Counted from the first letter of the stretch, positions 32,213 through 62,559 are shown. The stretch: DNA of 64,000 nucleotides from an uncultured cyanobacterium (GCA_963718615.1 OY970368.1:5472001-5536000), one strand, 5' to 3'. Numbers and translations: made by a program. Notes: generated from the sequence alone by a model not told the origin.

Positions 32213-32436
32213 ATTTTAAAAAAATCCGATCGCGCTGCACGCGAGGGCAAAATAGCCCCAAAATAGCTGCTATATCAACAGAAATACGAAAAAGGCAAGA
32301 GGGCAAAGGGCTAGGTCCTCAGGGCGGCGCACACCACCCGAAAACCGGTGAAGAAGTTGAAGTCGTCGGGCACATTCCCGACGCGCTGCGCGGAGCGGCA
32401 GTTCCTCGGATTGAAGTTCCAGGAGCCGCCGCGTAG
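32213..32436 (-). other. Putative DGR variable region with downstream pyrimidine tract and hairpin
   Basis: C-terminal RGGSW...GFRVVC with NNC/NNT codons at variable positions; stem-loop TCGCG-N5-CGCGA at 32230-32244 followed by a T-run on the minus strand. Confidence 0.65.
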
Positions 32437-34386
32437 TATATGCAACTCTTTGCTATCGTCAAAAGTTATCCAAGTTGAACCATCCGTTGGAGCTTTCTCG
32501 TAGTTGTCATGCCATTTGTCAGCACACCATTCCCACACATTCCCATGCATGTCATATAGCCCAAAGGCATTGGGCGGAAAGCTACCCACTTCAGTGGTCT
32601 GTTCTCGATACTTCCCCTTGCTGCTCTTGCCGTAGGTGTAGTTTCCGTCGTAATTCACGAGGTCTGGTGTGATCGTTTCACCAAAGTAAAACGGCGTGGT
32701 TGTCCCCGCCCGACAGGCATACTCCCACTCCGCTTCGCTCGGCAACCGATACTCTCGCCCCGTCCTCTCGCTCAGCTTTTTACAAAACTCCTGGGCATCA
32801 TTCCAGCTCACCTGCTCCACCGGACGGTTCTCGCCTTTGAAATTTGAGGGATTTTCCCCCATCACCGCCTCATACTGTGCCTGGGTCAACGCATACTTGC
32901 CCACACAAAACTCTGGGACCTGAACCCGATGGTGTGGGTATTCACTGCTTAAAGCCTCTTCTTCGCCATCCGCTGCCCCCATCCAAAACTCACCCCCAGG
33001 GATATCCACCATCTCCAACGTGATGCTATTGCCCAGATCTTCGATAAACTGCTCCGCCGATCGGGCCTCGCGCTGGGTGATCTGGCCCCGCTCATCCACC
33101 TGCACTGTCTTAAAGTCAAACCGAATGAGTTTGGGGCCGTTGGCGGGGGCTGAGGGCGGGACGAACGGCTGTTCGTCCGTACGGGGGGTGGGCGATGTTC
33201 GGGATCCTGGGGGGGATGGCTGGGGCTCTGGCTGCGGCGACTTGGGTGCTGATCGAGGCTGTAGCTGCCGCTCTTGGATCATCGCCTGCTCAATCCGCTC
33301 CGCATCCGCCTTCCCCAACTGTAAATTTTGCCGAATCCCCTCCAACCGACGCCTCGAGCGCTCACTCGGCAGACAACCATCCCCCACCGCCTGCCCAAAA
33401 TACTCGCGATACTTCGCCCGCTGCCGTGCCCGCACCCCATAGGGAGCCTGCACCTTTTGCTCTAGCTGCTGCGCCACCTCCAGGGGCACCTCCAACCGCA
33501 CCCGCAGCGTCTCTAGAAAGCCCCGGTCTAGCGGATCGCTAATCTCCCCATCAAACGCCAGCCCCAACTCCCCATCCAACTCCTGAAAAATCCGATCCAC
33601 CTCCCGCCGATACTCCAACACCGGATCCAACCTCGGAGCCCGCACGATCGGAATCTCATAGCCCGCATCCCGCGCCACAATAATCTTCGGCGACACCCCA
33701 CCCTTCTGCTCCACCTCAAACCGCCGCTCCGCATAACCATGCAGATCCCGCGCCACAATCCAGTCCCCCGCCCGCTCCCCCCGCCCATCCTGAGGCAACG
33801 CCGCCCCCGCCATCCCCTCCAGCAAATAGTGCGTATAGAGCGACAACCCATCCACCGCCTGAAACGAAGACTGCGCCGCACTCGACGACGCCAAAATCAC
33901 CCGCCCCGGAGCCTTCAGCGCCTCCAGCGCATTCTCTCCCTCCCCCTTGCGCAACAGATCCGCAATGGCCCCGCTATAACAACAGTCCAAAATCACCACA
34001 ATCTGCCCCGCCTTACTCAGCGACATCTGCCGCTTCAGCGTCTCCGCCGACATCGCCGTCCATTCCTGCAACCGCTTTTGCTCCTTCCGCGACCCCTTCA
34101 CACAGAAATGCAACTGCTGTTGCGCCACACTGATGCCCAAATCCCCATGGCCCGAAAAATAAAACAGCAGTAAATCCCCTGCACCCGCCCCCTGGAAAAA
34201 CTGCCCCGTCGCCGCCTCCATCGCCAGCCGTTCCGGATTCTCCAACGCGATCGGCGCTTCAAACGCCCCCTGCTGCGGATCCCCCAACGCCGCCGCCATC
34301 CCCCGCACATCCAGCAAACTTCCCGGCAACGACTCAAAGCCTTCGCCATATTCGCTCACACCGATTAGCAACGCTCGTCGTGCCAT
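32311..34386 (-). CDS. Caspase (peptidase C14) plus helical repeats plus FGE-sulfatase/C-type-lectin-fold protein
   Basis: RRALLIGVSEY, FYFSGHG (His), ILDCCYSG (Cys); C-terminal RLPSEAEWEYACRAGT, NAFGLYDMHGNVWEWC, RGGSW. Confidence 0.93.
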   Translation of the reverse strand: MARRALLIGVSEYGEGFESLPGSLLDVRGMAAALGDPQQGAFEAPIALENPERLAMEAATGQFFQGAGAGDLLLFYFSGHGDLGISVAQQQLHFCVKGSRKEQKRLQEWTAMSAETLKRQMSLSKAGQIVVILDCCYSGAIADLLRKGEGENALEALKAPGRVILASSSAAQSSFQAVDGLSLYTHYLLEGMAGAALPQDGRGERAGDWIVARDLHGYAERRFEVEQKGGVSPKIIVARDAGYEIPIVRAPRLDPVLEYRREVDRIFQELDGELGLAFDGEISDPLDRGFLETLRVRLEVPLEVAQQLEQKVQAPYGVRARQRAKYREYFGQAVGDGCLPSERSRRRLEGIRQNLQLGKADAERIEQAMIQERQLQPRSAPKSPQPEPQPSPPGSRTSPTPRTDEQPFVPPSAPANGPKLIRFDFKTVQVDERGQITQREARSAEQFIEDLGNSITLEMVDIPGGEFWMGAADGEEEALSSEYPHHRVQVPEFCVGKYALTQAQYEAVMGENPSNFKGENRPVEQVSWNDAQEFCKKLSERTGREYRLPSEAEWEYACRAGTTTPFYFGETITPDLVNYDGNYTYGKSSKGKYREQTTEVGSFPPNAFGLYDMHGNVWEWCADKWHDNYEKAPTDGSTWITFDDSKELHILRGGSWNFNPRNCRSAQRVGNVPDDFNFFTGFRVVCAALRT

Positions 34387-37922: not shown

Positions 37923-39017
37923 ATGGCCCCTTTAAATCTGATTCTGGGCAATTTCTTAGACAACATCCTGACCGGTACTGATCAAGATGATTTAATCTTT
38001 GGTCTAAATGGTAACGACACAATCGAAGGAGGGTTGGGTGCTGATATTTTGATAGGTGGCTTTGGCGACGATTTTTTGGAAGGGAATAAAGGCGACGATA
38101 CGATGATCGGCGGGTTTGGCAATGATGTTTTAGATTGGGATGACGGCGACGGCAGCGATATCATGAGCGGTGGCTTTGGTTACGACACCATTGAAGTGGA
38201 TGGCTCCGTTACCCGAGGCGATAACTTTACCCTAGAAGCGAGAGGTCAGCAGGCCATTTTTACCCGTGTGGGTTTGGATGGACAAAAGGGCGTCGGCGTT
38301 TTTAGTTTGACGGTCGATTCTTCAGAGCTTTTCGATGTCAGTGGTGAGGGGGGAAATGACACCTTTTTTGTGGGCAATCTCAACGGAACAGGGGTTCAAA
38401 AGGTCAAGTTTGATGGAGGAGACGGTGACGATTTGTTTGATGGGAGTAACAGCAGCGTTAGCATTGAAGCCATCGGCGGCAGCGGAAATGACCGATTGAT
38501 TGGCAGCCAGTTTGATGACCTGCTAGTGGGGGGAGATGGGGTTGATACGATGACTGGGGGTGGGGGGCGCGATCGCTTTCTCTACACCGGCAATCCTTTT
38601 GCAAACGGCACACCCAACGTCACCCCGAACGGCATTTCTGCCCTCAATCGCCCGGATATTATTACCGACTTTACGCTCAATCATGACCAGTTTGCCCTGG
38701 ATGCCAGCGACCTTGGTATCCACTCGATTCACTTTAGTTCAGGTCTATCTAATCAGCTGGGGGATGGCAATATTTTGGTGCTGACCGATGGCTTTGCCAA
38801 TGCTGCTGCTGCCGCTAAAGCGATCGACAATAACCATAATATTACGGCTGATGAAGGTGTATTTATTTACTTCAATACTAGTCTGGGCATCAGCCGTTTG
38901 GTTTATTCCGAGAACCTGGGCGATGGTGGACCGATTAGCGTTTTGGCCAATCTGACGAACCTGACGAATGTGGGCAATCAGGCAAACTTTGGGGCACAAA
39001 ACTTCACGGTTGTTTAA
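37923..39017 (+). CDS. RTX/hemolysin-type calcium-binding protein
   Basis: Multiple GGxGxD nonapeptides; RBS AGGAG. Confidence 0.9.
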   Translation: MAPLNLILGNFLDNILTGTDQDDLIFGLNGNDTIEGGLGADILIGGFGDDFLEGNKGDDTMIGGFGNDVLDWDDGDGSDIMSGGFGYDTIEVDGSVTRGDNFTLEARGQQAIFTRVGLDGQKGVGVFSLTVDSSELFDVSGEGGNDTFFVGNLNGTGVQKVKFDGGDGDDLFDGSNSSVSIEAIGGSGNDRLIGSQFDDLLVGGDGVDTMTGGGGRDRFLYTGNPFANGTPNVTPNGISALNRPDIITDFTLNHDQFALDASDLGIHSIHFSSGLSNQLGDGNILVLTDGFANAAAAAKAIDNNHNITADEGVFIYFNTSLGISRLVYSENLGDGGPISVLANLTNLTNVGNQANFGAQNFTVV

Positions 39018-42965: not shown

Positions 42966-44438
42966 ATGACTACAGAAACCTTATTTCTTCAGCCTAGTTC
43001 TTCAACGACGAAGCCCTTTAACAATGTGGCCAACGGGACGGGAAGTCTCAGTTTTTATGACAGTAGTAAAAGCTCTACTGCGGTTCTAACGTCTACAGAA
43101 GCTCAAACGCTTGTGAGTGGTGGTGTAGCTGCTGCGATCGCCGAAGCAGCCGCTACTTATCTGGCGAGTCCAGATTTTTCCAATGTGTTCAATACCAGCA
43201 CCGTCATTGGTCAAGACGGAACCTATCAAGGGGTTGCGAGCAGCGCCGCAGAGATCCTGGCAACCTATGCGGTCAAGCCGGGAGATACACTGGACTTTAA
43301 TTTCAATGCTGATGTGGCGTTGCAGGCCACTGAAATCGAAAAGCCCAATAAGTATTATTCTTTGGTTGAGCAAAAAACTAGCTTTTTGGTCATTGATTTG
43401 GATCCGGCTCCATCCAATTGGTATAAGTGGTCGAAGTGGGGCAAACCTCAATCCCCTAAAATTATTGGCTACTTTGGCCTAACGGGGGATTTGGAATCTT
43501 CGAAGCAGTCTCTCAAGCAATCCTTGACGAAGAGCAATAATGTCCAACTGTTCTCCGATAAGAAGTCTTCTGATATCGATCGCAATAATGGTATAGACTT
43601 CCTTACGCGTCAAGTTTCCGGTAATTTTCGAGACAAGTTCTCTGACAGCAGCCGGATTGCCGTCGTGAAATTGACGACCAGTTTTGTCAAGGTAACCGGG
43701 GATGAATTGATTGATGGCTTGGGTCGTGACGTGACCTATGGAACCATTTTTAATGACACACTCTATGCTTCTTCTAGAGGCGGAAAAGTGTACGCTAGCT
43801 TGGGCGATGACACGCTAAAGGGCAGCAAGGGACAAGACATCCTCGAAGGCGGGGGCGGGAATGACAAACTCTACGGCGAAGATGGCAACGACAAGCTGTT
43901 TGGCGGGGATGGTAACGATTATTTAGAGGGTGGTTCTGGGGATGATTTTTTGATTGGGGGATCTCAGAATGACACTCTCAATGGTGGGTACGGGAACGAC
44001 AAGATAGTGGGTGTTGATTTCCGGATGGCCAATGCCGGAGCCTACGAAATCGATCAGTTGAGCGGGGGCGGATATCCGGGGGGCAATGTTTCAGACAAGT
44101 TTGTGCTGGGGGATAATAAGCAAGCCTACTACCAAGGGGGTGGAAATCAAGACTACGCCCTGATCAAAGACTTTGCAAAGGGTTGGGACAAGATTTGGCT
44201 GTACGGTGCAGCCGGGGACTATACCGTGGAATATGTAGGCTCAAGCTGGGGTTATAATCCTTGGGGATCTTGGGGCGGTGGCGGCGGCACGCCTTCCGAT
44301 GGATTGGCTTCCGGGTCACGCATTTATCGGACTGCGGGTGGGCAAAAAGATCTGATTGGTGTGGTTGAGAATGTCAATCTTTCTGGACAACTCAATTCGT
44401 CTTCGATATTCCAATACAATCAAACCGTAACGGCTTAG
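42966..44438 (+). CDS. RTX-type calcium-binding secreted protein
   Basis: GGxGND repeats in the C-terminal half; DKFVLGD...DYALIKDF..GWDKIWL tail. Confidence 0.88.
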   Translation: MTTETLFLQPSSSTTKPFNNVANGTGSLSFYDSSKSSTAVLTSTEAQTLVSGGVAAAIAEAAATYLASPDFSNVFNTSTVIGQDGTYQGVASSAAEILATYAVKPGDTLDFNFNADVALQATEIEKPNKYYSLVEQKTSFLVIDLDPAPSNWYKWSKWGKPQSPKIIGYFGLTGDLESSKQSLKQSLTKSNNVQLFSDKKSSDIDRNNGIDFLTRQVSGNFRDKFSDSSRIAVVKLTTSFVKVTGDELIDGLGRDVTYGTIFNDTLYASSRGGKVYASLGDDTLKGSKGQDILEGGGGNDKLYGEDGNDKLFGGDGNDYLEGGSGDDFLIGGSQNDTLNGGYGNDKIVGVDFRMANAGAYEIDQLSGGGYPGGNVSDKFVLGDNKQAYYQGGGNQDYALIKDFAKGWDKIWLYGAAGDYTVEYVGSSWGYNPWGSWGGGGGTPSDGLASGSRIYRTAGGQKDLIGVVENVNLSGQLNSSSIFQYNQTVTA

Positions 44439-44442
44439 TGAA

Positions 44443-44481
44443 GAGAAAGAATGCGATCGCCTCTGCCGCATCTACACCATA
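44443..44481. repeat. 39-bp direct repeat, left copy
   Basis: gagaaagaatgcgatcgcctctgccgcatctacaccata; 35/39 identical to 48315-48353. Confidence 0.85.
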
Positions 44482-44550
44482 GTGCCGAGGCGATCGCGTT
44501 CCTTTTCAGCGTAAGACTTTTGACGAAGGATCGCTTCTTGTGAAAAGGAT

Positions 44551-45807
44551 TTATTCCTCTTCATCGTCATCGTAATCCTCGTCTTCTTCGTCATCGTAAT
44601 CCTCGTCTTCTTCTTCATCGTAATCCTCGTCGTCGTCATCTTCATCGTCATTGTCTTCATCCTCGTCGTCGTAGTCCTCGTCTTCTTCGTCCTCGTCTTC
44701 TTCGGAATCTAAGGAATATTCATAATCTTCGTCAATTGCGAAGGTTTCACAGAGGCTATCTAGCTCTTCTAAAAAATCCTCTGAATCATCGATAGTTAAA
44801 TCAAAGTTGCTAATCGTAATTCTGTAATCATCTTCAGTTTCCTCCTCTTCATAGTCAAAGTAATAATCCTCTTCATTATCAATATAGCTTTGGCATAGTT
44901 CTTCTAACTTTTCAATAAAGCCTTCCGAATCATTTGTACGAATATAAAAATCATAGAGCAGAAGTGAGTCTTCACCCGCGAAGACGGAGTCTCCATCCTC
45001 CCAAATGTCAACACTAAAATCTAGATCGCTAATGGCTTTAATAATCCAAGAATCGTGACCGTTATAGTCATTGTGGATCACGTAGGAATAGGGAATATAG
45101 CAATAGCCTTTATCTCCCCATTCTGTACCCCAAGAGTTTCGTACAATAAACATGCGATCTTTATCGGAATAGCCCACACAGAGCATCGCGTGCCAGCCGT
45201 GGGTTTCGCGTACGTTGTCTGAACGCTTGGGCATAGGCACACGGCCCCGATGGCGGGTCGCTTCATCAAACGAATCAAAGGTATTGAGGGCAAAGGCGAT
45301 GGGGTAGCCTTCAGCCAGGGTATGCCGCCATAGGTTTAAATCAGTTTCAATTGCTTCAGCTTCAACAATTTTAAAGTTACTTGCTTGTTCATAGGCGCTT
45401 TTGTCAGGTTCTTCACAAATAAGCGATTCATCGTTTGCCCAGAGGTCTTCACAGCAGGCCCCATGTTCAATCAAAGCATTGATGGCGCAAAACATTTGTG
45501 AACCTTCATCGCTCTGTTCACAGCCTTCCTGGGCGCGGGCATTGTAGTAAACAAACAGACGACTGACATTCTCTGATTCACCCAGGTTGCGCTTGGCAAG
45601 ATATTCGTAGGCACCCACAAAGGCATTGGCCACACAGCTATTTCCGACCTGTTCTTCCACCTCAGTCATGTGCTTCCGCAAATCTACCCTGCGGGGCAAC
45701 TGCGCTGCTTGGAACCGATTATTTTGGTGGTATTTCGTATTTTCGGGCTTTTTACCGGGACGATAGCCCCCGATGCGACGATTGCGCACTGGCAAAAGAG
45801 TCAGCAT
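44551..45807 (-). CDS. Papain-like C1 peptidase with very acidic C-terminal tail
   Basis: VDLR, EEQVGNSCVANA (Gln/Cys), GWHAMLCVGY (His), RNSWG (Asn); last ~50 aa almost all D/E. Confidence 0.9.
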   Translation of the reverse strand: MLTLLPVRNRRIGGYRPGKKPENTKYHQNNRFQAAQLPRRVDLRKHMTEVEEQVGNSCVANAFVGAYEYLAKRNLGESENVSRLFVYYNARAQEGCEQSDEGSQMFCAINALIEHGACCEDLWANDESLICEEPDKSAYEQASNFKIVEAEAIETDLNLWRHTLAEGYPIAFALNTFDSFDEATRHRGRVPMPKRSDNVRETHGWHAMLCVGYSDKDRMFIVRNSWGTEWGDKGYCYIPYSYVIHNDYNGHDSWIIKAISDLDFSVDIWEDGDSVFAGEDSLLLYDFYIRTNDSEGFIEKLEELCQSYIDNEEDYYFDYEEEETEDDYRITISNFDLTIDDSEDFLEELDSLCETFAIDEDYEYSLDSEEDEDEEDEDYDDEDEDNDDEDDDDEDYDEEEDEDYDDEEDEDYDDDEEE

Positions 45808-46014
45808 GATCCTTCGGCTCCTTCAGCATCAGGACTAAGTAATTTTACAAGGGGCTATTCAGCCTGTCCTAGGGTTAAAGTTCCCAATTCCGGCCTCGCC
45901 ATTGCTTGTGTCCTGCATCTTATTGAGATTGAATCCCCCACGAAGAGCTTCTCTTCTGCCTAGGGAATGCTAGGGGAATAAATTCACTTTGAAGGGTTGA
46001 GAGGCTCAAGAATC

Positions 46015-46254
46015 ATGGCAACAATTCGCAAAGTCAACACCGATCCCAGCACCACCTGGGACGATCTGAGTTGGACCGAGATGAACAGTACTGAACAAGA
46101 ACTCTGGGCCAAGCTAGGTTGGACCGAAGCCAGTTGGGAAGAAGACATTGATTCTCCTGCCAGCGATGACCAGTACTGGGCAGAGCTCAGCGCCACTGAA
46201 CGCCAAGCGGCCCAAGACCTGGGCTATACCCCAACAACTTGGGATGAAGAATAG
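46015..46254 (+). CDS. Small acidic Trp-repeat protein
   Basis: 79 aa with two repeats of W.E(M/L)..TE..(LW/AA)..LG(W/Y)T...W(E/D)EE; purine-rich upstream sequence. Confidence 0.75.
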   Translation: MATIRKVNTDPSTTWDDLSWTEMNSTEQELWAKLGWTEASWEEDIDSPASDDQYWAELSATERQAAQDLGYTPTTWDEE

Positions 46255-46361
46255 TTCTTTGATCTTTCCGTAACACCAGGCACTCAGCGAGCAGGCTGGG
46301 AACGTCTCAAGCCTTACTTATCCCACTTCTGTTGCGATACTATATATCTTGCTCTTTGCTC

Positions 46362-48302
46362 ATGCAACAACTCATTAAGGGATACCCTCCTGCGCGTCGC
46401 CGTACGCGCTATGGTACTTTGGCAGACCGATGGCGCTATGGCTTTGATAATTTTATGTCTCGGGGAACCGCTGCCTTGGTCAGTGGTTTGATCCTGGCCT
46501 CGTTGGCTTTCATTTTGCCCATCAGTGTTTTGGTGAGCCTCGCAGGTATTGCTCCAGAGGGCGGCGATCGCCTCAGTCTACCGGAATCCATCTGGGCCGT
46601 GCTCATGCGCAGCCTTGACGCAGGGACCGTCGGTGGTGATACAGGCTGGGTCTTTCGTTTAACAATGCTGGTCGTCACCTTTGGTGGCATCTTTGTTGTG
46701 AGTACACTCATCGGTTTACTCAGCAGTGGCATTGACTCCAAACTTGAAGATTTGCGCCAGGGGCGATCGCGAGTCATCGAAACCGACCACATTGTAATTT
46801 TGGGCTGGTCGCTGCAGATCTTTACGCTGATTTCTGAGTTGGCGATCGCCAACGCCAATCGCCCCGATACCTGCATTGTCATCCTGAGCGAACAAGACAA
46901 AGTGCAGATGGAAATGGCCCTTTACGATACGCTGGGCAAGCTGCCTCGAATTCGATTAGTTTGCCGCACCGGTAGTCCGAGTAATATGACAGACCTCGGT
47001 ATCGTCAGTATTCAGACGGCTCGATCAGTCATTATTCTCAATTCCACTCAGGACCGTGCTGATACTCAATTGGTAAAGACTTTGTTGGCCGTTGCGAATA
47101 TTCCGCGATCGCTCCCCGAGCCCTATCATATCGTCGCCCAAGTTCAATCAGAAAAAACTTTAGAGGTGCTTAAGCTCATCAGCAAAAACCAGGAAGTTGA
47201 GCCTTTACTAACCCATGACTTAATCTCGCGCATTGTCGTCCAAACCTGTCGACAATCGGGGCTTTCGATTGTCTATATGGATTTGCTCAACTTTAGCGGT
47301 GACGAAATCTACTTCAAGGAAGAGCCTGCACTTCAGGGTAAAACCTATGACCAAGCACTCCTCGCCTACAACAACTCAACGGTGATTGGGATTCAAACCA
47401 TCCAGGGTGAAATTCAACTCAATCCACCCGGTCAAACGGTCTTGCAACCTGGTGAACGGTTAATTGTCATTAGTGAAGATGATGATACGATTTGTTTGAC
47501 AAATTCTGGCCATCGAGCCGTCGATGCTCAAGCCATTCAGCCTGCCAAGCCGATTACGCTGAAAGCCGAACACACTTTAATATTAGGTTGGAACGATCAA
47601 GTTAAAAATATTATTCGACAATTAGACCAATATGTTGCCCTGGGGTCTACCGTCACGGTGCTTGCCGAGTTGTCCGAGGAAGCACTATCGCGATCGGATG
47701 AATCCCTGAGCGAGTACAAACAGGCAGTACGTTATCTCTCTGGTGACCCCACAGACCGAGAGGTCCTCGAAAGTCTTCATTTAACTAAGTATAATCAGGT
47801 CATTGTTCTCTGTAATCCTAATTTAGATGCGGAACAGGCGGATGCACAAACGCTGATGACGTTGCTGCATTTGCGAGATATTGCCGATCGCCATCACCAT
47901 GATTTTCAGATTGTCACCGAAATTCTGGATGTCAAAAATCAAGCTCTAGCTCAGGTTGCTAGACCGGATGACTTCGTGATTAGTGAGCAAATTATTAGCT
48001 TGATGCTAGCCCAGGTGGCAGAGCAGAAAAGCATCAATGCAGTCCTCACTCGCCTCTTTAGTCCCGAAGGTTCGGAGATCTATCTTAAGCCCGCAGATTC
48101 CTATGTGACAGTAGATCGACCCGTTAACTTCTACACGGTAGTAGAAGCCGCCAGGCAGCGAGGAGAATCGGTGATTGGCTATCGCTGTCAAGGGGATGCT
48201 GACAATATGGCGAGAGCCTATGGGATTGTGATTAACCCACCCAAGGATCAGCCCATTCACTTTTCCTGTGAGGACAAGATTATCCTCTTAGCGGAAACTT
48301 AA
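46362..48302 (+). CDS. CASTOR/POLLUX (DMI1)-related cation channel
   Basis: RWRYGFDNFMSRG, pore SLDAGTVGGD, GRSRVIETDHIVILGW, LLNFSGDEIYF, two RCK-like domains, EGSEIYLKP, INPPK. Confidence 0.88.
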   Translation: MQQLIKGYPPARRRTRYGTLADRWRYGFDNFMSRGTAALVSGLILASLAFILPISVLVSLAGIAPEGGDRLSLPESIWAVLMRSLDAGTVGGDTGWVFRLTMLVVTFGGIFVVSTLIGLLSSGIDSKLEDLRQGRSRVIETDHIVILGWSLQIFTLISELAIANANRPDTCIVILSEQDKVQMEMALYDTLGKLPRIRLVCRTGSPSNMTDLGIVSIQTARSVIILNSTQDRADTQLVKTLLAVANIPRSLPEPYHIVAQVQSEKTLEVLKLISKNQEVEPLLTHDLISRIVVQTCRQSGLSIVYMDLLNFSGDEIYFKEEPALQGKTYDQALLAYNNSTVIGIQTIQGEIQLNPPGQTVLQPGERLIVISEDDDTICLTNSGHRAVDAQAIQPAKPITLKAEHTLILGWNDQVKNIIRQLDQYVALGSTVTVLAELSEEALSRSDESLSEYKQAVRYLSGDPTDREVLESLHLTKYNQVIVLCNPNLDAEQADAQTLMTLLHLRDIADRHHHDFQIVTEILDVKNQALAQVARPDDFVISEQIISLMLAQVAEQKSINAVLTRLFSPEGSEIYLKPADSYVTVDRPVNFYTVVEAARQRGESVIGYRCQGDADNMARAYGIVINPPKDQPIHFSCEDKIILLAET

Positions 48303-48305
48303 ACT

Positions 48306-49232
48306 TCAGAGGACGAGAAAGGATGCGATCGCCTCTGCCACCTCTACGCCATATTCTTCCCCTAGACCCAGGCTACCTGGGAGTTTAAGCATAGGAAAAA
48401 GAGCAGTGGGAGAAGAGGAAGACAGTGCCGTGGCGATCGCTTCCATTTCGGCTTTAGATGAGGGTGGAGCTTGGTCTGCAATCACGACCCCAATGGGAAT
48501 AGAGCATTGAGCCAACATCTGGAGAAATGCCTCCCGCGATTCGACTGGATCGAGCCCACCCGTGACAAAGGCGGCTGGGGCATAGCGGGCACCAGTTTTT
48601 TGGGTGTTCTGATGGCGTTGGGCAAGATAGTCGGGGGTGAGCTGAGTTGCGTCAACAAAGACGTGGCGACGGTACATCCATTTGAGAAAGCTAGGGCGGG
48701 TGTTGAGACCGTAAAGCGCTTGGCCTAGGAGGGGCGATCGCACCAGTTCCCGTAAGGCAGTCCGAACCCCTTTAGGCGCACCCATAACGGCCAGTGGCCC
48801 CCGCCAAGTCGGCGCAACGAGCACGAGTTTTGTGCATAGTCCTTGGTTCGCAGCCGTGAGGGCGTAGCCTGCGGCATGACCCGCAGCAATCAGGACAGGA
48901 GGCTGGGCTAGTTCCCGGATGAAGTCTTGGAGAAACTGATGGTAGAGAGTAGGTTCGTAGGACAGTTTGGGGCGATCGGAGTCGCCGAAGCCCGGCCAGT
49001 CGAGGGTGATGACTTGAACGCGATCGGGAAATTGTTGCAGCAACTGCATAGCCATAGCCCGCAGTTCGTGGCGGCTGGAGACGGTACTGAAGGCTGGCAG
49101 TAGCACCAGCGGTGTCCCTTGCCCCCAGGTTTCAAAACAGATGTTGAGGGCTTGGGTTTTCCAGGTCCAGGTCCAGGATGTGGTCTTGCTGGAAGACGTT
49201 GCGAGGGTTTGCGGAGCAGAGGCCTGATTCAT
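48306..49232 (-). CDS. Alpha/beta hydrolase-fold protein (cyanobacterial type)
   Basis: LLPAFSTVSSR, DWPGFGDSDRP, AAGHAAGY, APTWRGPL. Confidence 0.85.
   Translation of the reverse strand: MNQASAPQTLATSSSKTTSWTWTWKTQALNICFETWGQGTPLVLLPAFSTVSSRHELRAMAMQLLQQFPDRVQVITLDWPGFGDSDRPKLSYEPTLYHQFLQDFIRELAQPPVLIAAGHAAGYALTAANQGLCTKLVLVAPTWRGPLAVMGAPKGVRTALRELVRSPLLGQALYGLNTRPSFLKWMYRRHVFVDATQLTPDYLAQRHQNTQKTGARYAPAAFVTGGLDPVESREAFLQMLAQCSIPIGVVIADQAPPSSKAEMEAIATALSSSSPTALFPMLKLPGSLGLGEEYGVEVAEAIASFLVL
48315..48353. repeat. 39-bp direct repeat, right copy (inside the 3' end of the hydrolase gene)
   Basis: gagaaaggatgcgatcgcctctgccacctctacgccata. Confidence 0.85.
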
Positions 49233-49329
49233 GATGGTTGCACCAATGATGGATTTCAATCTCAATATCACCCAATTTATCCAAGCATGCTCCCCAAGTC
49301 TGCAATCATTTAATCCTTGGCCCAGATAG

Positions 49330-50088
49330 TCATCCGTGGCGAATAAATGCAGGGCCATAGGCTGCCGTTAGGGTATCTGGGTGTAGAACTTCCTCCGGGG
49401 AACCTTGATGAATCAACTGACGATTGAGACAAAGAACACAATCACAGTGGGTTCTGACCATATTTAAGTCATGGGAAATTTGTAAAATCGACCAGCCCTG
49501 TTCTCGTTTGAGTTGACTCAGTAAGGCATAAAACTCTGCTTCCCCTCGTACATCTAAGCCTGCGGGTGCTTCGTCCAGAATCAACAACTGTCGAGGACGA
49601 ATCAAGCAGTAGGCCAGTAATACTCGTTTGATTTCACCTCCTGATAAACTGCTGATAGCTTGGCGATGCAGATGGCTGGCTTCTACCTGGGCTAGCGCAA
49701 GCTGAACCGCATGGGATCGCTCTCGCCATCCCACCCAAGGAAGTTGCCAGCCTAATCGATCCCAGCCCAATCCCACCAGCTCCGCAACGGTCATGGGAAT
49801 CCGTTGATCAATCAAGAAGTTTTGTGGTAGGTAAGCAACATGATGGCGGAGCAAGGTTTCGGTCTTAGGACCCAGGCGTTGCCCCAGCAATGTAACCTGT
49901 CCAGCCTGATAGGGTAATAGCCCTAAAATAGCTTGAATCAGCGTACTTTTGCCTGCACCATTGGGGCCAATAATGGCCATGTCCATACCCGCAGGCAGCG
50001 AAAAAGAAATATCTTGGATAGCGGCTGTCTTTCCTCGATGGACGGTTAGACGTTCTACGGTCAGAATGGGAGGCATTGATGACATCAT
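49330..50088 (-). CDS. znuC: Zn/Mn ABC transporter ATPase
   Basis: GPNGAGKST, YLPQ, LSGGEIKRVLLA, LILDEA, ISHDL; downstream of znuA. Confidence 0.85.
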   Translation of the reverse strand: MMSSMPPILTVERLTVHRGKTAAIQDISFSLPAGMDMAIIGPNGAGKSTLIQAILGLLPYQAGQVTLLGQRLGPKTETLLRHHVAYLPQNFLIDQRIPMTVAELVGLGWDRLGWQLPWVGWRERSHAVQLALAQVEASHLHRQAISSLSGGEIKRVLLAYCLIRPRQLLILDEAPAGLDVRGEAEFYALLSQLKREQGWSILQISHDLNMVRTHCDCVLCLNRQLIHQGSPEEVLHPDTLTAAYGPAFIRHG

Positions 50089-50101
50089 AGGGGGGTTGGC
50101 A

Positions 50102-51148
50102 TCATGAGCCCGCAAAGGCTTGTTGCAGTTGAATAACATTCTCCCGCATGACGGTAAAGTAGGCATCGGGCCTAATACTATCCATCTCTCCCACTTCATT
50201 GGGCTGAAATGTACTGATGTTTACATTCAAATCTTGAGCTAAGGCCTGGAAGGGACCCGCTGTTGCTTGAGATTCAGTTAAGAGGGTTTTGAGCTCAGAT
50301 TTTTTTACGGCTTCCATGACTCGTTTGACATCATTAGGGGCAGGATTCTCTTCGGGAATTCCCACTAAAAATTCGACTTTTAAGCCATAGCGATCGGCAA
50401 AGTAATTGGCAAAGTCGTGATAGGTGACAAAGGTTTTACCTGCAAAGGGAGACAGGGTCTTCTGAATCTCCTGGTGAAGTGCTTCTAACTGTGCGTTATA
50501 GGTAGCAGCATTGGCCGTAAATTGTGCTTCACAAGTGGGCTGAGCTACGATCAAGCCATCGCGAATATTGTTCACTTGATCCATCGCTCGCACCGGATCT
50601 AACCAAATATGGGGATCGAATTCACCATGATCATGGCTCTCTGTTTCTTCGCCGTGATGTTCTGACTCTGTACCGTGATGATCATGCTCGCTCTCTACCA
50701 TGGGAATCAGATCGAGTCCTTCGCTACTATCAATAATCTTCAAGTTTGGATTGCCCGTATTCTCGATCATAGAGTCTAGAAAATGTTCAATTTCTAGGCC
50801 GTTTTGTACCAAGACATCTGCCTGTGACAGGCTTTGAGCATCACTGGGTTTAGCCTGATAATCGTGGGGACCAACATTGGTCGGCAAGAGTTGAGTGACC
50901 TCAGCGCAGTCACCCGCTACCGCTTTAGTGAACTGGGTCATGGGCAAAAATGTCGTTACAACCTTCAGCTTCTGCTCGCTGCTAGGGGCCGCATTATTGG
51001 CTAAGTCTTGAGCAGAGGTTTTGCCTGCGTTTTGGCCTGCGTTCTGGGCTACCTCTGGATTGGATTGGCCGGAGCAAGCACCTAGCACTAGGGCGATCGC
51101 CAGACCTAAAAATCGAACGTGAATGGATTGACCTTTAGCTAAAACCAT
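50102..51148 (-). CDS. znuA: Zinc ABC transporter substrate-binding lipoprotein
   Basis: Lipobox LGAC, GPHDY, His-rich loop, DPHIWLDP, TYHD; TTG 51166 is an alternative start. Confidence 0.88.
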   Translation of the reverse strand: MVLAKGQSIHVRFLGLAIALVLGACSGQSNPEVAQNAGQNAGKTSAQDLANNAAPSSEQKLKVVTTFLPMTQFTKAVAGDCAEVTQLLPTNVGPHDYQAKPSDAQSLSQADVLVQNGLEIEHFLDSMIENTGNPNLKIIDSSEGLDLIPMVESEHDHHGTESEHHGEETESHDHGEFDPHIWLDPVRAMDQVNNIRDGLIVAQPTCEAQFTANAATYNAQLEALHQEIQKTLSPFAGKTFVTYHDFANYFADRYGLKVEFLVGIPEENPAPNDVKRVMEAVKKSELKTLLTESQATAGPFQALAQDLNVNISTFQPNEVGEMDSIRPDAYFTVMRENVIQLQQAFAGS

Positions 51149-51156
51149 GGCTAAAA

Positions 51157-52272
<1,116 letters not shown>

Positions 52273-52355: not shown

Positions 52356-52766
52356 GTGGTGAACCGGAGGTTAACGAGTAGTCAGATGTTGGTATACGAG
52401 GTGTTACAAGACACGTCTCTGGAATTAAGTGCTCAGGCGATTCATGCCGCTTTAGTTCGTCGCGGGCATGCCCGTGGCTTGGCAACGGTTTATCGGGCAT
52501 TGCGAGGGTTGCAATTGCTGGGGTTGGTGCGATCGCATTCCTTGCTCGCAGGAGAACAGGGATTTAGCTTGTGTCACAAAAACTCCCCCTACCTCACCTG
52601 TTTGCAATGCGGACAATCGGTATCTTTAGCAATGAGTCCGATGGAAAACTTTGTCCGACATCTTGCTCAACAAGCGAACTTTCTAGTCTATTACCACACG
52701 CTAGAGCTTATTGGGATCTGTTTGCCTTGTCAAGACAATATTCAAGGGGAACATCATCAAACGTAG
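52356..52766 (+). CDS. Fur-family regulator, Zur-like paralog
   Basis: LSAQ, GLATVYRAL, LTCLQCG, YYHTLE..GICLPC. Confidence 0.85.
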   Translation: MVNRRLTSSQMLVYEVLQDTSLELSAQAIHAALVRRGHARGLATVYRALRGLQLLGLVRSHSLLAGEQGFSLCHKNSPYLTCLQCGQSVSLAMSPMENFVRHLAQQANFLVYYHTLELIGICLPCQDNIQGEHHQT

Positions 52767-56150: not shown

Positions 56151-58007
56151 TTAGATGAGAGATTTTTGGGCGATCGCCTCCTGCATTTTGTCGATGAGCA
56201 CTTGAAGCTTTAAGCAGCCTAAATCTCCCCCCATTCGGGTCCGAACACTGAGGGTTTCGCTCTCTACCTCTCGTTTGCCAATTACCGCAATCACAGGGAT
56301 TTTTTCAAGTTCTGCGGTTCGAATCATTTTGCCGAGGCGATCGCCACTCTGATCCACCTCTGCCCGAAATCCTTGTTTTTTTAACTGCTGAACCCATTGA
56401 TCTGCATAGTCCCGCTGTTTATCACTCACGGGCAATAGCCTGACTTGTACCGGAGCCAACCACAGCGGAAAAAGGCCCGCATAGTTCTCAATTAAAATGC
56501 CAAAGAATCGCTCTAGGGAACCGAAGATGGCGCGGTGAATCATGATGGGTCGTTTCCGTGAACCGTCCGCTGCGACATATTCCATGTCAAACCGTTCTGG
56601 CAAGTTGAAATCCACCTGAATGGTAGAACATTGCCACAGACGACCAATGGCATCGCGAATTTTGATGTCAATCTTGGGACCATAGAAAGCCCCGCCCCCT
56701 TCATCCGTGAGGTAGGGCCACCCCTTGGTTTCTAATGCTTCGATCAACGCAGCGGTGGCCAATTGCCAAATCTCATCCCCACCGACGGATTTCTCTGGTC
56801 GAGTTGAAAGATTGACTTCATAATCCTGGAAGCCAAAGTCTGAGAGGATTTTTTCCGTGAGGTCTAGAACGCCTAAAATTTCAACGGCGACCTGATCGGG
56901 TAAACAGAAAATATGCGCATCATCCTGAGTAAATCCGCGAACGCGCATCAACCCGTGGAGCGTGCCAGATCGCTCGTAGCGATAGACTGTGCCGAGTTCT
57001 GCCCAACGCAGGGGAAACTCCCGATAGGAATGGAGATCATGCTGGTAGGTCAACACATGAAAGGGGCAATTCATGGGTTTGAGCTGATAGGCTTGCTCCT
57101 CCACATCAATGGCATCAAACATGCCATCTCGATAGAAATCAAAATGGCCCGAGGTTTTCCAAAGCTCTAGGTTGGCCAGATGGGGGGTGAACAATAGCTC
57201 ATAGCCTGCCTCCGTATGAGCCTGCCGCCAATAGTCTTCGATCACACGGCGAATTCTTGCGCCCTTAGGGTGCCAAAACACCAAGCCGCCCCCCGCTTGC
57301 TCTTCAATGCTGAAGAGCTTTAGTTCTTGGCCCAACTTGCGATGATCCCGCCGTTTAGCCTCCTCTTTTTGTTGGAGATAGCTTTGGAGCTGTTCTGGAG
57401 TTTCCCAAGCGGTGCCATACACCCGCTGTAACTGTGCCTTGGTTTCGTCACCTCGCCAATAGGCTCCGGCCACACTTTCCAAGGCAAAGGCCTGGGGATT
57501 GATCTGCCCCGTCCGGGTCAAATGGGGGCCAGCACAGAGATCCCACCAGCAGGGGTGGGGGGGAATGACGACTGGGTGAATCAGAGACGGTTCGACTTCC
57601 GGGTGATTGGTCCAACCGCTGTCAGGGCAGCCGATGAAATAGCGACTAATGACGGCCTCCTCTGGGAGACTATCAAGAATTTCGAGCTTGTAGGGTTCGT
57701 TGAGTTGCTCAATTTCCGCCTTAATGGCTGTGCGATCAACAGTTTCTTGAATGATGGGCAGATCCGCTTTGATGATTTGCCGCATTTCCAGCTCAATCTG
57801 CTCTAGATCCTCTGGGGTGAAGGGAGTGGGGCAATCAAAATCGTAGTAGAAGCCAGTCTCCGTCCAGGGGCCAAGGGTCACCTTCGCCTCCGGAAAGAGT
57901 CGCTGCACGGCCATGGCGAGAACATGGGAGCAGGTGTGGCGAATCCGCTGGAGCTGGTCAGCGACCTCAGGAAGAGGTGAGAGTTGAACAAAAGCAGGAT
58001 GGGACAT
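56151..58007 (-). CDS. thrS: Threonyl-tRNA synthetase (Zur-regulated thrS2 type)
   Basis: RHTCSHVLA, DLCAGPH, RDHRKLG, KPMNCP, RVRGFTQDDAH, FYGPKID, IHRAIFGSLERF. Confidence 0.96.
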   Translation of the reverse strand: MSHPAFVQLSPLPEVADQLQRIRHTCSHVLAMAVQRLFPEAKVTLGPWTETGFYYDFDCPTPFTPEDLEQIELEMRQIIKADLPIIQETVDRTAIKAEIEQLNEPYKLEILDSLPEEAVISRYFIGCPDSGWTNHPEVEPSLIHPVVIPPHPCWWDLCAGPHLTRTGQINPQAFALESVAGAYWRGDETKAQLQRVYGTAWETPEQLQSYLQQKEEAKRRDHRKLGQELKLFSIEEQAGGGLVFWHPKGARIRRVIEDYWRQAHTEAGYELLFTPHLANLELWKTSGHFDFYRDGMFDAIDVEEQAYQLKPMNCPFHVLTYQHDLHSYREFPLRWAELGTVYRYERSGTLHGLMRVRGFTQDDAHIFCLPDQVAVEILGVLDLTEKILSDFGFQDYEVNLSTRPEKSVGGDEIWQLATAALIEALETKGWPYLTDEGGGAFYGPKIDIKIRDAIGRLWQCSTIQVDFNLPERFDMEYVAADGSRKRPIMIHRAIFGSLERFFGILIENYAGLFPLWLAPVQVRLLPVSDKQRDYADQWVQQLKKQGFRAEVDQSGDRLGKMIRTAELEKIPVIAVIGKREVESETLSVRTRMGGDLGCLKLQVLIDKMQEAIAQKSLI

Positions 58008-59126: not shown

Positions 59127-59345
59127 ATGATTTTGAATCCTGACTTTCCTCATATTGTCTGGTCATTTCCCTATCGCGGCTGGCGATTGGAGGTAGATCG
59201 GAGCGAAAATGATGGGCAAGTTGTATATGCTGTTTGGGCTAATCATGAGGGAGGGACGGCGATCGCAGTGCCCTGTGCTTTGACCCGTGAAGAGGCCATC
59301 AAGCGCGCCAAGCACTATGTCGATTCCCGAATCAGCGCTGATTAG
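59127..59345 (+). CDS. Small hypothetical protein
   Basis: 72-aa ORF with YRGWRLEV...YAVWA...AIAVP...EAIKRAK.YVD. Confidence 0.6.
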   Translation: MILNPDFPHIVWSFPYRGWRLEVDRSENDGQVVYAVWANHEGGTAIAVPCALTREEAIKRAKHYVDSRISAD

Positions 59346-60418
59346 AACATTCGCCAAATCAACCATTCCCCCGCCTGCCCTCCAGCCACCAAAAACTGCC
59401 CTGAAGGATGCCACGCGACGGTAGAAAATCCCTGCATCGTGGCCTCAATTATTTGGCTTAAAATATGGCCCTTGCGCCAAAGCCCCAGAGAGCCATCCGC
59501 CGAGGCCGTGGCGAGTAACAAACTTTGGGGATGAAAGGCGATCGCCTCCACCCGTTCTGTATGCAACTCCAGTAATCGTGCCTCCCAGCCAATCGCATCA
59601 TCCTCGGATTTTTGCCACAGGACAATATCTTGGCTACTGGCACTCGCCAATAATGGAGCCTGACCCGACAGCACTGGGCTCCAGACGAGCTGCCTCACCT
59701 TCCCCGGAAAGCCCCCCATGCGCCAAGGATTCTCACTGTTGCCCTGTTGCCAGACCCAGAGCGTCCGGTCGAGATTGCCTGAGGCTAAGTATTGACCTTC
59801 TGGTGAGCAGGCGATCGCCAGCCCCGCAGAGGGCATCTCTAAAATCTGCGGTTCCCGGTCCCAATCGCCAGCCTTCCAAATTTTGACGCCCTGCTGTCCA
59901 CTGACGGCGAGCCAGTGCCCCGCCGGGTGCCATTGCAGATCTAATACTGACGACTGCTCAAAATCCACCGTCATCACGACAGCCTGGTCGATCGCATCCC
60001 AAACCTGAACATAATGACCCAAACTGAACGCCAGCTCAGGCTTGCAAGGATTCCAGGCTAGGCGATCGACCCAGACCCGTGGATGTTCAAGTTGGGTGAG
60101 CAGCGTCGGCCCCTCTTTGGAATCAGCTTGGATTGGCATCGACCACAGATACAGACATCCCTCCTGACCCCCGGCTGCCAGAAATCGGCCATCGGCGGAA
60201 AATTCTAAGGTATCGATGGAAGATCCCTGCGGTTCCGTCAATGGATGCAGAGACAATTCTTCCCCTAGCCAATGGCCCCAAACCACCTCACCCGCCGCAG
60301 AAGCAAGGGCAATGACTTGGCCCGTGGGAGACCAGGCGATCGCCGTGATGTAGTCCTGTAAATGGCCCTGGCTATGGGGGGTTACCAGGGTTTGCAGGGG
60401 TGCTCTTACTGTATACAT
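59342..60418 (-). CDS. WD40-repeat protein (COG0523-associated)
   Basis: Repeated AWSP/FSADG/WHP..G motifs; overlaps the COG0523 gene. Confidence 0.9.
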   Translation of the reverse strand: MYTVRAPLQTLVTPHSQGHLQDYITAIAWSPTGQVIALASAAGEVVWGHWLGEELSLHPLTEPQGSSIDTLEFSADGRFLAAGGQEGCLYLWSMPIQADSKEGPTLLTQLEHPRVWVDRLAWNPCKPELAFSLGHYVQVWDAIDQAVVMTVDFEQSSVLDLQWHPAGHWLAVSGQQGVKIWKAGDWDREPQILEMPSAGLAIACSPEGQYLASGNLDRTLWVWQQGNSENPWRMGGFPGKVRQLVWSPVLSGQAPLLASASSQDIVLWQKSEDDAIGWEARLLELHTERVEAIAFHPQSLLLATASADGSLGLWRKGHILSQIIEATMQGFSTVAWHPSGQFLVAGGQAGEWLIWRMF

Positions 60419-61380
60419 GCGCAGAAGTCCCGCCGAAGTTGTTCTCCATCTAAGTCACGACCGATAAACACCAATTCATTCTTGCGCGTTTCGTTAGACT
60501 TCCAGGGGCGATCGGGTTGTCCATCGAAGAGCATATGTACCCCTTGAAACACAAAGCGTTGATCCTCTCCGGCAATATTCAAAATGCCCTTCATCCGAAA
60601 GATGTTTGTGCCTTGGGTTTGTAGCAAATGGCTCAGCCAATCATTCAACTTCACGCCATCCAATTCTCCTGCTTCCACGATAGCTACAGACCCCACCGAA
60701 TCATCATGCTCATGGGCATGTTCTTCCTCTAAAAACTCAGGCTCAATTTCCAAGGCTCGGTTGAGATCAAAGGCTTTGACTCCTAAGATTGCATCCATTT
60801 CAACCGCAGCATCCTGGGTCCGATAAATCTTGGCCATGGCATTCATGGCACGAATTCGCTGCTCTAGGGCAATTAAATCTGCCTCTTCCACGAGATCCGT
60901 TTTATTCAGCAAGATTACATCGGCAAAGGCTAATTGTTCCTGGGCTTCATCGGCTTCCCAATGCTGATGGATATGTTTGGCATCTACTACGGTGACCACA
61001 GCATCCAAGGCGAGTTGGCCTCGCATATCCTCATCAACAAAGAAGGTCTGAATGACAGGAGCTGGGTCTGCCAAGCCGGTCGTCTCAATGACCAGATGAT
61101 CAAACTTGTTTCGACGCTTCATTAAGTTGCCAATAATGCGAATCAAATCCCCTCGCACCGTACAGCAAATACAGCCATTGTTCATTTCAAAGATTTCTTC
61201 ATCGGCATCAATGACCAACTGGTTATCAATGCCGACCTCGCCAAACTCATTGACGATCACCGCAATCTTTTGACCATGCTCATGGGTGAGAATGCGGTTG
61301 AGCAGCGTTGTCTTGCCTGCTCCCAGATAGCCCGTGAGAACCGTGACGGGCACAACGCTTTCTTCGTATGCAATGCTCAT
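60406..61380 (-). CDS. COG0523/CobW-family GTPase metallochaperone
   Basis: TGYLGAGKTT, VNEFGEVGID, NGCICC, ETTGLADP, NKTD, short HAHEH. Confidence 0.95.
   Translation of the reverse strand: MSIAYEESVVPVTVLTGYLGAGKTTLLNRILTHEHGQKIAVIVNEFGEVGIDNQLVIDADEEIFEMNNGCICCTVRGDLIRIIGNLMKRRNKFDHLVIETTGLADPAPVIQTFFVDEDMRGQLALDAVVTVVDAKHIHQHWEADEAQEQLAFADVILLNKTDLVEEADLIALEQRIRAMNAMAKIYRTQDAAVEMDAILGVKAFDLNRALEIEPEFLEEEHAHEHDDSVGSVAIVEAGELDGVKLNDWLSHLLQTQGTNIFRMKGILNIAGEDQRFVFQGVHMLFDGQPDRPWKSNETRKNELVFIGRDLDGEQLRRDFCACIQ

Positions 61381-61494: not shown

Positions 61495-62559
<1,065 letters not shown>

Follow-up and report, generated by a model that had tools for sequence, protein, structure and literature searches.

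How does the end of a gene come to lie beyond three other genes? This question was raised by a locus in a 64,000-nucleotide (nt) stretch of DNA from an uncultured cyanobacterium (GCA_963718615.1, OY970368.1:5472001-5536000), called hereafter the window, in which positions are counted from the first letter. At this locus, genes for a papain-family cysteine peptidase, a 79-amino acid (aa) Trp-rich protein and a CASTOR/POLLUX-like ion channel lie between an alpha/beta hydrolase gene and a displaced, decayed copy of the 3' end of that same hydrolase gene. A preliminary description, made from the sequence alone, had taken the three genes for a mobile functional module. The analysis reported here leads to another answer: the locus is probably an old insertion scar with chance cargo, not a module, a reading to which we give a probability of about 0.6.

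The duplicated hydrolase end and the stretch it bounds

The two repeat copies, 44443-44481 and 48315-48353, are identical at 35 of 39 bases, in agreement with the preliminary description. A direct-repeat search of the window extended the pair to 44440-44481 and 48312-48353 (37/42 identical), and added a second homologous piece of the left copy, 44481-44505, which matches 48424-48448 (21/25). An IUPAC pattern merged from both 39-nt copies was found at exactly two sites in the window (none expected, from 100 shuffles) and at the same two sites only in the whole 6,095,823-base, single-contig genome, where the reversed pattern used as a control had no match. In a gapped local alignment, segment 44440-44536 was paired with 48312-48352 plus 48424-48472, with 77 identical of 90 aligned positions, the left copy being without the 71 nt that correspond to 48353-48423. 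The score of this alignment was 83.6. Controls gave a mean of 23.2 and a maximum of 39.8 for 300 shuffles, and a mean of 32.8 and a maximum of 50.8 for 180 other segments of the window anchored on the HIP1 motif (GCGATCGC). Therefore, the left copy is a decayed piece of the last ~160 nt of the hydrolase gene, and more than a 39-mer containing HIP1.

The right copy (48312-48472, minus strand) is the one in use. It forms the last ~160 nt of the coding sequence of the hydrolase, a 350-aa open reading frame (ORF; 48306-49358, minus strand; Pfam Abhydrolase_6, 2.5e-14) ending in EEYGVEVAEAIASFLVL. The left copy, read straight from the window sequence, translates as YGVDAAEAIAFFL. The earlier view of the right copy as the hydrolase 3' end, and of the left one as its displaced version, was thus correct. 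The relic, a pseudogene fragment of the hydrolase 3' end, occupies 44440-44516 on the minus strand, where 44440-44480 matches 48312-48352 at 36/41 positions and 44481-44516 matches 48424-48458 at 30/35; beyond 44516 the homology is weaker, possibly reaching 44536. Its decay amounts to 14% mismatches and the 71-nt deletion.

HIP1 is present in both pieces of the relic. It is an abundant motif, with 95 sites in the 64-kb window versus 1.2 expected, and 1.44 sites per kb genome-wide. Nothing points to the HIP1-mediated recombination that had been suggested, since the motif lies inside the repeat, away from its borders, and other loci of the same anatomy, described below, are without it.

From left to right, the order of the locus is: RTX gene (plus strand), relic, C1 peptidase (minus), 79-aa protein (plus), channel (plus) and hydrolase (minus), with intergenic gaps in the insert of 34, 207, 107 and 9 nt. 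The non-duplicated insert between the copies is 3,775 nt long (44537-48311) and sits at the end of the hydrolase gene. It begins 14-34 nt outside the peptidase stop codon and finishes 9 nt past the channel stop codon, and the duplication stops two codons short of the hydrolase stop codon (48306-48308). On the left, the RTX-repeat (HemolysinCabind) protein gene (42966-44438, plus strand, 490 aa; Pfam PF00353, 1.9e-22) ends with a TAG codon that is 1 nt away from the relic. On the minus strand, this RTX stop codon is overlapped by a TAA (44435-44437), 5 nt beyond the relic border. The TAA could be the original hydrolase stop codon, and its position fits a former tail-to-tail order of the hydrolase and RTX genes.

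The flanking direct repeats being the 3' end of the target gene, the locus does have the attachment site-like (attL/attR-like) layout of an insertion at a gene 3' end, as first noticed. The reported absence of an integrase within the cassette was confirmed with Pfam and NCBIfam: the ORFs of 27-64 kb gave no match to an integrase, transposase or other recombinase family. The sizes of the gaps leave no room between the genes for a decayed integrase. In or beside the insert, Rfam gave no match and a tRNA scan no gene.

Linkage and nature of the three genes

Linkage of the three genes was tested by searching 300 other cyanobacterial genomes for the channel, the protease domain and the 79-aa microprotein. 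The channel was present in 33 of these genomes, the protease catalytic domain in 70, and the microprotein in 33. No two of the three genes were adjacent in any of them: the closest pairs on a same contig were separated by ~41 kb (G029), ~43 kb (G052), ~112 kb (G071) and ~152 kb (G072), and by more than 1 Mb in G237. Neighbourhoods were fetched for 20 loci each of the channel, microprotein and protease genes, and at none of these loci did two of the three genes stand side by side. The most frequent neighbour families occurred in at most 4 of 21 channel loci and 3 of 21 protease loci; at microprotein loci, recurring neighbours (up to 7 of 21) were neither the channel nor the protease. PADLOC gave no family for the five proteins searched at E<=0.01. 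We therefore read the three genes, on these sequence comparisons, as independent, individually widespread cyanobacterial genes that are chance passengers of the insert.

The composition of the three genes is that of their host, with percentiles of 12-33 for GC content at third codon positions (GC3) and of 26-43 for codon score, like the adjoining znuC and znuA genes. A recent or foreign origin of the insert is thus not supported, GC3 and codon use being within the range of the genome. Each of the three is present in a single copy in this genome.

The mobile protease/microprotein/channel module of the preliminary description, with its supposed role in defence, abortive depolarisation or Ca2+/K+ signalling, is the least credible of the explanations considered here. 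It accounts for the tight packing of the three genes between the repeats, and for the microprotein and channel genes being on the same strand, 107 nt apart. Against it stand the lack of adjacency of any two genes in the 300 other genomes, the lack of a shared partner at the fetched loci, the null result of PADLOC, which leaves the defence role without a match, the absence of mobility genes, and the single genomic copy of each gene. That the genes do not occur together elsewhere is the very outcome named in the preliminary description as refuting a module.

The first of the three genes (44551-45807, minus strand, 418 aa) encodes a papain-family (C1) cysteine peptidase (Pfam PF00112, 1.9e-12, 48.2 bits versus a cutoff of 20.7), composed of a xylellain-like catalytic domain (residues ~1-290) and a 130-aa polyacidic C-terminal tail. 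Its match to PDB entry 3ois (7.9e-33) spans residues 5-259 and aligns the motifs of the catalytic Cys, His and Asn, SC(V/T)ANA, HA(M/V)LCVGY and RNSWG; this entry, entitled only 'Cysteine protease', we take to be a xylellain-type enzyme. Catalytic domain and motifs are alike in the two proteins, and the window peptidase adds the acidic tail, which is kept in cyanobacterial relatives. The tail (window 44551-44937) was present in all 20 peptidase relatives fetched, with an Asp/Glu fraction of 0.21-0.79, and varied in sequence and length. A C1 protease with an acidic tail, as first described, is therefore what the gene encodes.

The second gene (46015-46254, plus strand) encodes the acidic, Trp-rich protein of 79 aa, made of two repeats. 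It represents a conserved stand-alone family: an alignment of 15 sequences contained 22 invariant columns, seven of them Trp. Its AlphaFold2 model has a pLDDT (predicted local distance difference test) score of 90.6. No Pfam family matched the protein, and Foldseek with the model found no PDB fold at E<=0.001. In one genus (19 of 20 genomes), the match to the family lies within open frames of 115-129 codons, as two overlapping pieces, which suggests from sequence that these versions may carry an extra repeat.

The third gene (46362-48302, plus strand) encodes a CASTOR/POLLUX/DMI1-like ion channel of 646 aa if read from the ATG at 46362, or 656 aa from the TTG at 46332. It has an N-terminal membrane part (hydrophobic segments judged by eye) followed by two RCK-type domains, with Pfam matches to Castor_Poll_mid (PF06241, 7.1e-39, 132.4 bits versus a cutoff of 26.7), Slo-like_RCK (3e-16) and TrkA_N. 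Among PDB structures it matched CASTOR (6o6j, 3e-69) and DMI1 (7vm8, 3.3e-66), the solved chains covering the soluble part only (query residues 132-511). The proposed homology to the plant channels is thus sound. The window gene shares the Castor_Poll_mid and RCK domains with them, but it is bacterial and stand-alone, and has no conserved partners. Orthologues with 66-76% identity were found in 21 other genomes and are spread over many families; the family to which the window belongs yielded only a pseudogene remnant, at a different locus in genome G003. Broken remnants with stop codons lie at unrelated loci in two other genomes, G003 (contig C123, 9954-10295 of the extracted locus L082) and G014 (contig C1, 3233731-3234514), so that the channel appears to have been repeatedly lost.

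RTX-type calcium-binding repeat proteins adjoin the CASTOR-like channel in 2 of the 20 other channel loci (L021, 6237-7943; L035, 10638-12017), and two RTX genes are near the channel here (window 37923-39017 and 42966-44438). RTX proteins are very common in cyanobacteria, so this proximity may be due to chance. Further to the left, a 691-aa ORF (window 32311-34386) combines an N-terminal caspase-like domain (EACC1-associated type, below cutoff) with a C-terminal FGE-sulfatase/PvdO-like domain.

Gene-end duplications elsewhere in the genome

The genome was scanned for direct repeats of at least 35 nt, placed 0.3-20 kb apart, and BLAST copy counts were used to assign two-copy status. The scan yielded 1,925 pairs, mostly from multicopy families. 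Of 92 HIP1-bearing pairs of 35-59 nt, six were two-copy, among them the focal pair, and 71 came from a single repeat family with ~22 copies. Isolated two-copy pairs (35-300 nt) numbered 47, and 18 of these had one copy in an ORF and the other in an intergenic region. For 10 of the 18, the ORF copy was no more than 60 nt from the stop codon, versus ~3.4 expected (binomial P 6e-4), and 9 of these 10 stop-proximal pairs had the intergenic relic on the downstream side. A few pairs had the mirror-image layout at start codons.

At least eight further repeat pairs, at seven loci (positions 1280627, 2488342, 5717516-5721059, 1552424, 986570, 1734354 and 5537420 of the contig), are duplications of 49-201 nt of a gene 3' end, bounding inserts of 0.8-7 kb. 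At the end of the cobN/Mg-chelatase gene, the insert encodes ParE and a small ORF (repeat of 157 nt, 99% identical), and at the end of hsdM it encodes HepT and MNT (127 nt, 91%). The argS end is followed by two serial cassettes, each closed by a relic, the first with UPF0175 and DUF3368 and the second with DUF433 (repeats of 61-79 nt, 85-90%). Inserts were also found at the ends of a HEAT-repeat gene (PIN, DUF5615 and two IS3 copies; 90 nt, 91%), of a 101-aa ORF (PIN_3 and DUF4160; 201 nt, 99%), of an MscS-like gene (an HSDR_N-like ORF; 86 nt, 91%) and of a 276-aa ORF, orf276, just right of the window (two DUF2231 genes, coxBAC and a GMC oxidoreductase; 49 nt, 94%). The cargo therefore consists mostly of toxin-antitoxin cassettes, and once of a cox operon. 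No site-specific integrase was present in the inserts at these loci, one of which contains two copies of an IS3-type transposase. Copy-and-paste from elsewhere in the genome was rejected as their source: the focal insert and seven other inserts had no second copy, and the only repeated piece among the inserts checked was the IS3 element inside the HEAT-gene insert.

Inspection of the borders revealed that the similarity between the copies ends at, inside or within a few nt of the stop codon for cobN, argS (both cassettes), the HEAT gene and orf276, and that the relic keeps its own stop codon at cobN, the HEAT gene and argS. Such a limit is what donor and recipient DNA resembling each other in the coding sequence alone would be expected to give. 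The nine loci, including the focal one, involve eight different target genes and duplications of 39-201 nt, and no shared junction motif was seen by eye at the four borders of the nine loci. The variety of targets and of duplication lengths, together with the lack of a shared motif and of an integrase, argues against a single site-specific enzyme. As the same layout exists in at least eight other places, the process that creates it is recurrent.

Origin of the locus

The hydrolase gene belongs to a cluster of zinc-related genes. Next to it lie genes for a znuC-type ATPase (49330-50199, minus strand), a znuA/aztC-type binding protein (50102-51166, minus), porphobilinogen synthase (hemB, 51157-52251, minus) and a Fur/Zur-family regulator (52356-52766, plus), all assigned with NCBIfam. 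A displaced remainder of the cluster is found further right, on the minus strand: a thrS paralogue (56151-58007), a WD40 protein gene (59342-60418), three COG0523 GTPase genes (60406-61380, 61495-62559 and 62590-63597) and a znuB-type permease gene (63659 to the window end, 64000). Orthologues of the hydrolase were collected at 29 loci, 25 from metagenomes and 4 from genomes, with 48-66% identity. They too stand in zinc-limitation clusters, with znuA/C, hemB, the Fur-family regulator gene (zur) and COG0523 GTPases, and none of the 29 loci, all from other genera with different neighbours, has a channel, protease, microprotein or RTX gene. An orthologue (76-94% identity) of the GTPase encoded at 60406-61380 follows the hydrolase within ~850 nt in 9 of the 29 loci. 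Here, this GTPase gene and znuB are 12-15 kb from the hydrolase, on the opposite side of the cluster. The displacement of this gene, with the other COG0523 genes, the WD40 gene, the thrS paralogue and znuB, indicates that the zinc cluster was reshuffled as well as interrupted.

The genes assembled here, znuABC, COG0523 GTPases, zinc-independent paralogues and a Fur-family regulator, are those expected to co-locate in a zinc-limitation cluster, and the same gene classes are contained in the Anabaena Zur regulon (PMC10957091). The hydrolase is a conserved member of such Zur-type clusters, which suggests a zinc-related role. In that paper, the word 'hydrolase' does not occur, and no such role is described. 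The thrS and sensor kinase genes were tried as yardsticks for vertical versus horizontal descent, and dropped because they are rich in paralogues.

For the empty site, an RTX gene convergent on the hydrolase, 40 relatives were screened, none of the same genus. A metagenome scan with the hydrolase gave 25 loci, with best identities of 62-66%, where 66% is the maximum over the matched segment. Public sequencing runs contained at most 14% of the window's sampled words in any run, and contigs of runs X1-X4, which matched as fragments only, were used for comparison. Those of X1 match portions of the RTX, protease, channel and hydrolase genes with ~1-7% differences. One of them, of 648 nt, goes through the RTX gene and its stop codon and then matches the hydrolase-like sequence 48418-48458; therefore, this relative too has a hydrolase-end relic straight after the RTX gene. 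In another run, X4, an apparent joint from 46224 to 48731 (21 nt on one side, metagenome, 85% threshold) was treated as noise.

If the locus is an old insertion scar, as we think, one end of the incoming DNA would have undergone a homologous crossover inside the conserved coding sequence of the hydrolase, and its other end would have joined illegitimately, slightly upstream of the recipient's own stop codon. Homology-facilitated illegitimate recombination and Campbell-type single crossover are candidate routes, which would require no recombinase. The product would be the gene, the insert and the displaced gene end, with a working hydrolase 3' end kept and a second copy left next to the RTX stop codon, where it would then decay. 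Direction, age and mechanism of the event are what we infer from the anatomy of the locus, the non-linkage of its genes and the recurrence of the layout, and about half of our confidence in the scar as such goes to one-sided homology as the specific mechanism.

Several observations weigh against this reading. The donor arrangement was not found, the hydrolase standing beside the channel in none of the 29 hydrolase and 20 channel loci; likewise, for cobN, the youngest of the sister loci, the gene end was near ParE in none of 29 ParE loci of other genomes, in which the ParE relatives were at most 57% identical. Among the relatives, all too distant, no clean empty site was seen. The relic piece in X1 is closer to the gene copy (48418-48458) than to the relic of this genome, and the first relic piece was not detected (one contig). 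This is not what one old relic common to both genomes would predict, and it may be due to independent decay, to gene conversion or to a different junction. The reshuffling of the zinc cluster means that a purely internal rearrangement could have made the junction. Finally, homology-facilitated illegitimate recombination classically deletes recipient DNA rather than duplicating it.

Such an internal rearrangement would make the three genes long-term residents and the relic debris of duplications and deletions in the zinc cluster, with nothing inserted from outside. The transfer of the usual downstream GTPase and znuB genes to the other side of the cluster, the native composition of the three genes and the channel remnant in G003, which shows that the family once had a channel, all agree with it. 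We nevertheless consider it unlikely, because it needs at least two precisely placed steps to put a copy of the gene end beyond exactly three genes, and because it leaves unexplained the recurrence of the layout around toxin-antitoxin cassettes at other genes, with repeats 99% identical at two of them. Similarly improbable is the remnant of a site-specific integrative element at the hydrolase 3' end, which would have brought a replacement gene end, as e14 does at icd, and whose integrase would have been lost since or be encoded elsewhere, as for a cis-mobilisable element. The anatomy is that of icd, e14 and icdC, where the element supplies the gene end on its own side and a C-terminal pseudogene is displaced to its far end, and the two serial, relic-closed cassettes at argS resemble accretion at an attachment site. 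However, neither an integrase nor a remnant of one is present in 27-64 kb, the nine loci have no common junction motif, and the cargo does not travel together elsewhere.

A further explanation does without any duplication: the left copy would be a HIP1 hairpin under selection, with a terminating or regulatory function, whose likeness to the hydrolase end arose by convergence. The relic's two halves, each centred on HIP1, do form a hairpin on both strands (44443-44507), an inverted repeat with 24-nt arms that are 83% complementary. Folding of 44430-44520 gave -38.3 kcal/mol (z -4.9) for the plus strand and -33.1 kcal/mol (z -3.1) for the minus strand, and U-rich tracts follow the hairpin on both strands, between convergent genes. 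A simple terminator scan did not flag it, the hairpin loop exceeding the limit of the scan. Against convergence, the homology (77/90 nt) is in gene order and extends outside the stem as well as inside, its score exceeds those of all 180 HIP1-anchored controls, and only two copies exist genome-wide. Convergence is for these reasons very improbable, but a later reuse of the relic is compatible with its descent from the hydrolase gene, and the hairpin may have come to terminate transcription in both directions, between the convergent RTX and protease genes.

A more general proposal, which we make tentatively and would not yet bet on, is that the scar reflects recurrent, recombinase-free capture of DNA, in which cassettes are set exactly at stop (sometimes start) codons, anchored by coding-sequence homology, and leave relics of 40-200 nt. 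If so, toxin-antitoxin pairs would be the commonest cargo, cox and channel/protease genes would arrive in the same way, and relics would be reusable, here as a terminator hairpin. The focal locus would then be an old example of a general islet-building process, undescribed as such.

Parts of this picture are familiar from known systems. In E. coli, prophage e14 lies between icd, which keeps a functional 3' end on the side of the element, and icdC, a diverged pseudogene fragment of the icd C terminus that marks the far end (PMC13626634). The focal locus shares this kept gene end and displaced fragment. Unlike e14, which has its own site-specific recombination system and excises, the focal insert is without a recombinase, measures 3.8 kb, carries three ordinary genes, and is bounded by a relic with a 71-nt deletion.

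Cis-mobilisable elements (CIMEs) and accreted island remnants are flanked by direct repeats from a gene 3' end, have no integrase, and may form tandem arrays split by repeat copies; CIMEs share their attachment sites with a known family of integrative elements. The loci described here are like them in their integrase-free, repeat-flanked DNA and in the serial array at argS, but each locus involves a different gene, and there is no common core and no partner element identified. Homology-facilitated illegitimate recombination and Campbell-type integration, known from naturally transformable bacteria, use homology on one side only and no dedicated enzyme. They would explain both the similarity that ends at the gene boundary and the arbitrary cargo; for this organism they are candidate mechanisms, and no donor arrangement was found.

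Inserted DNA bounded by a duplicated gene 3' end is an already known kind of locus, and the genes of the focal insert belong to known families. Two of them, the C1 peptidase with its acidic tail and the conserved Trp-rich protein of 79 aa, merit ordinary characterisation. The locus is a warning against inferring function from neighbourhood, as tight packing between repeats looked like a module and comparison shows chance cargo. The more useful lead is the existence, in one genome, of at least nine places where a gene-end duplication bounds inserted DNA without an integrase. A literature search found no description of gene-end duplications around toxin-antitoxin cassettes in cyanobacteria, which is not proof that the pattern is unpublished. 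If foreign DNA is indeed captured in this way, by one-sided homology in a cyanobacterium that is polyploid and naturally transformable, displaced gene-end relics would provide a simple sequence signature for finding such events, and the spread of small cassettes, toxin-antitoxin ones among them, would be accounted for with no need of mobile-element machinery.

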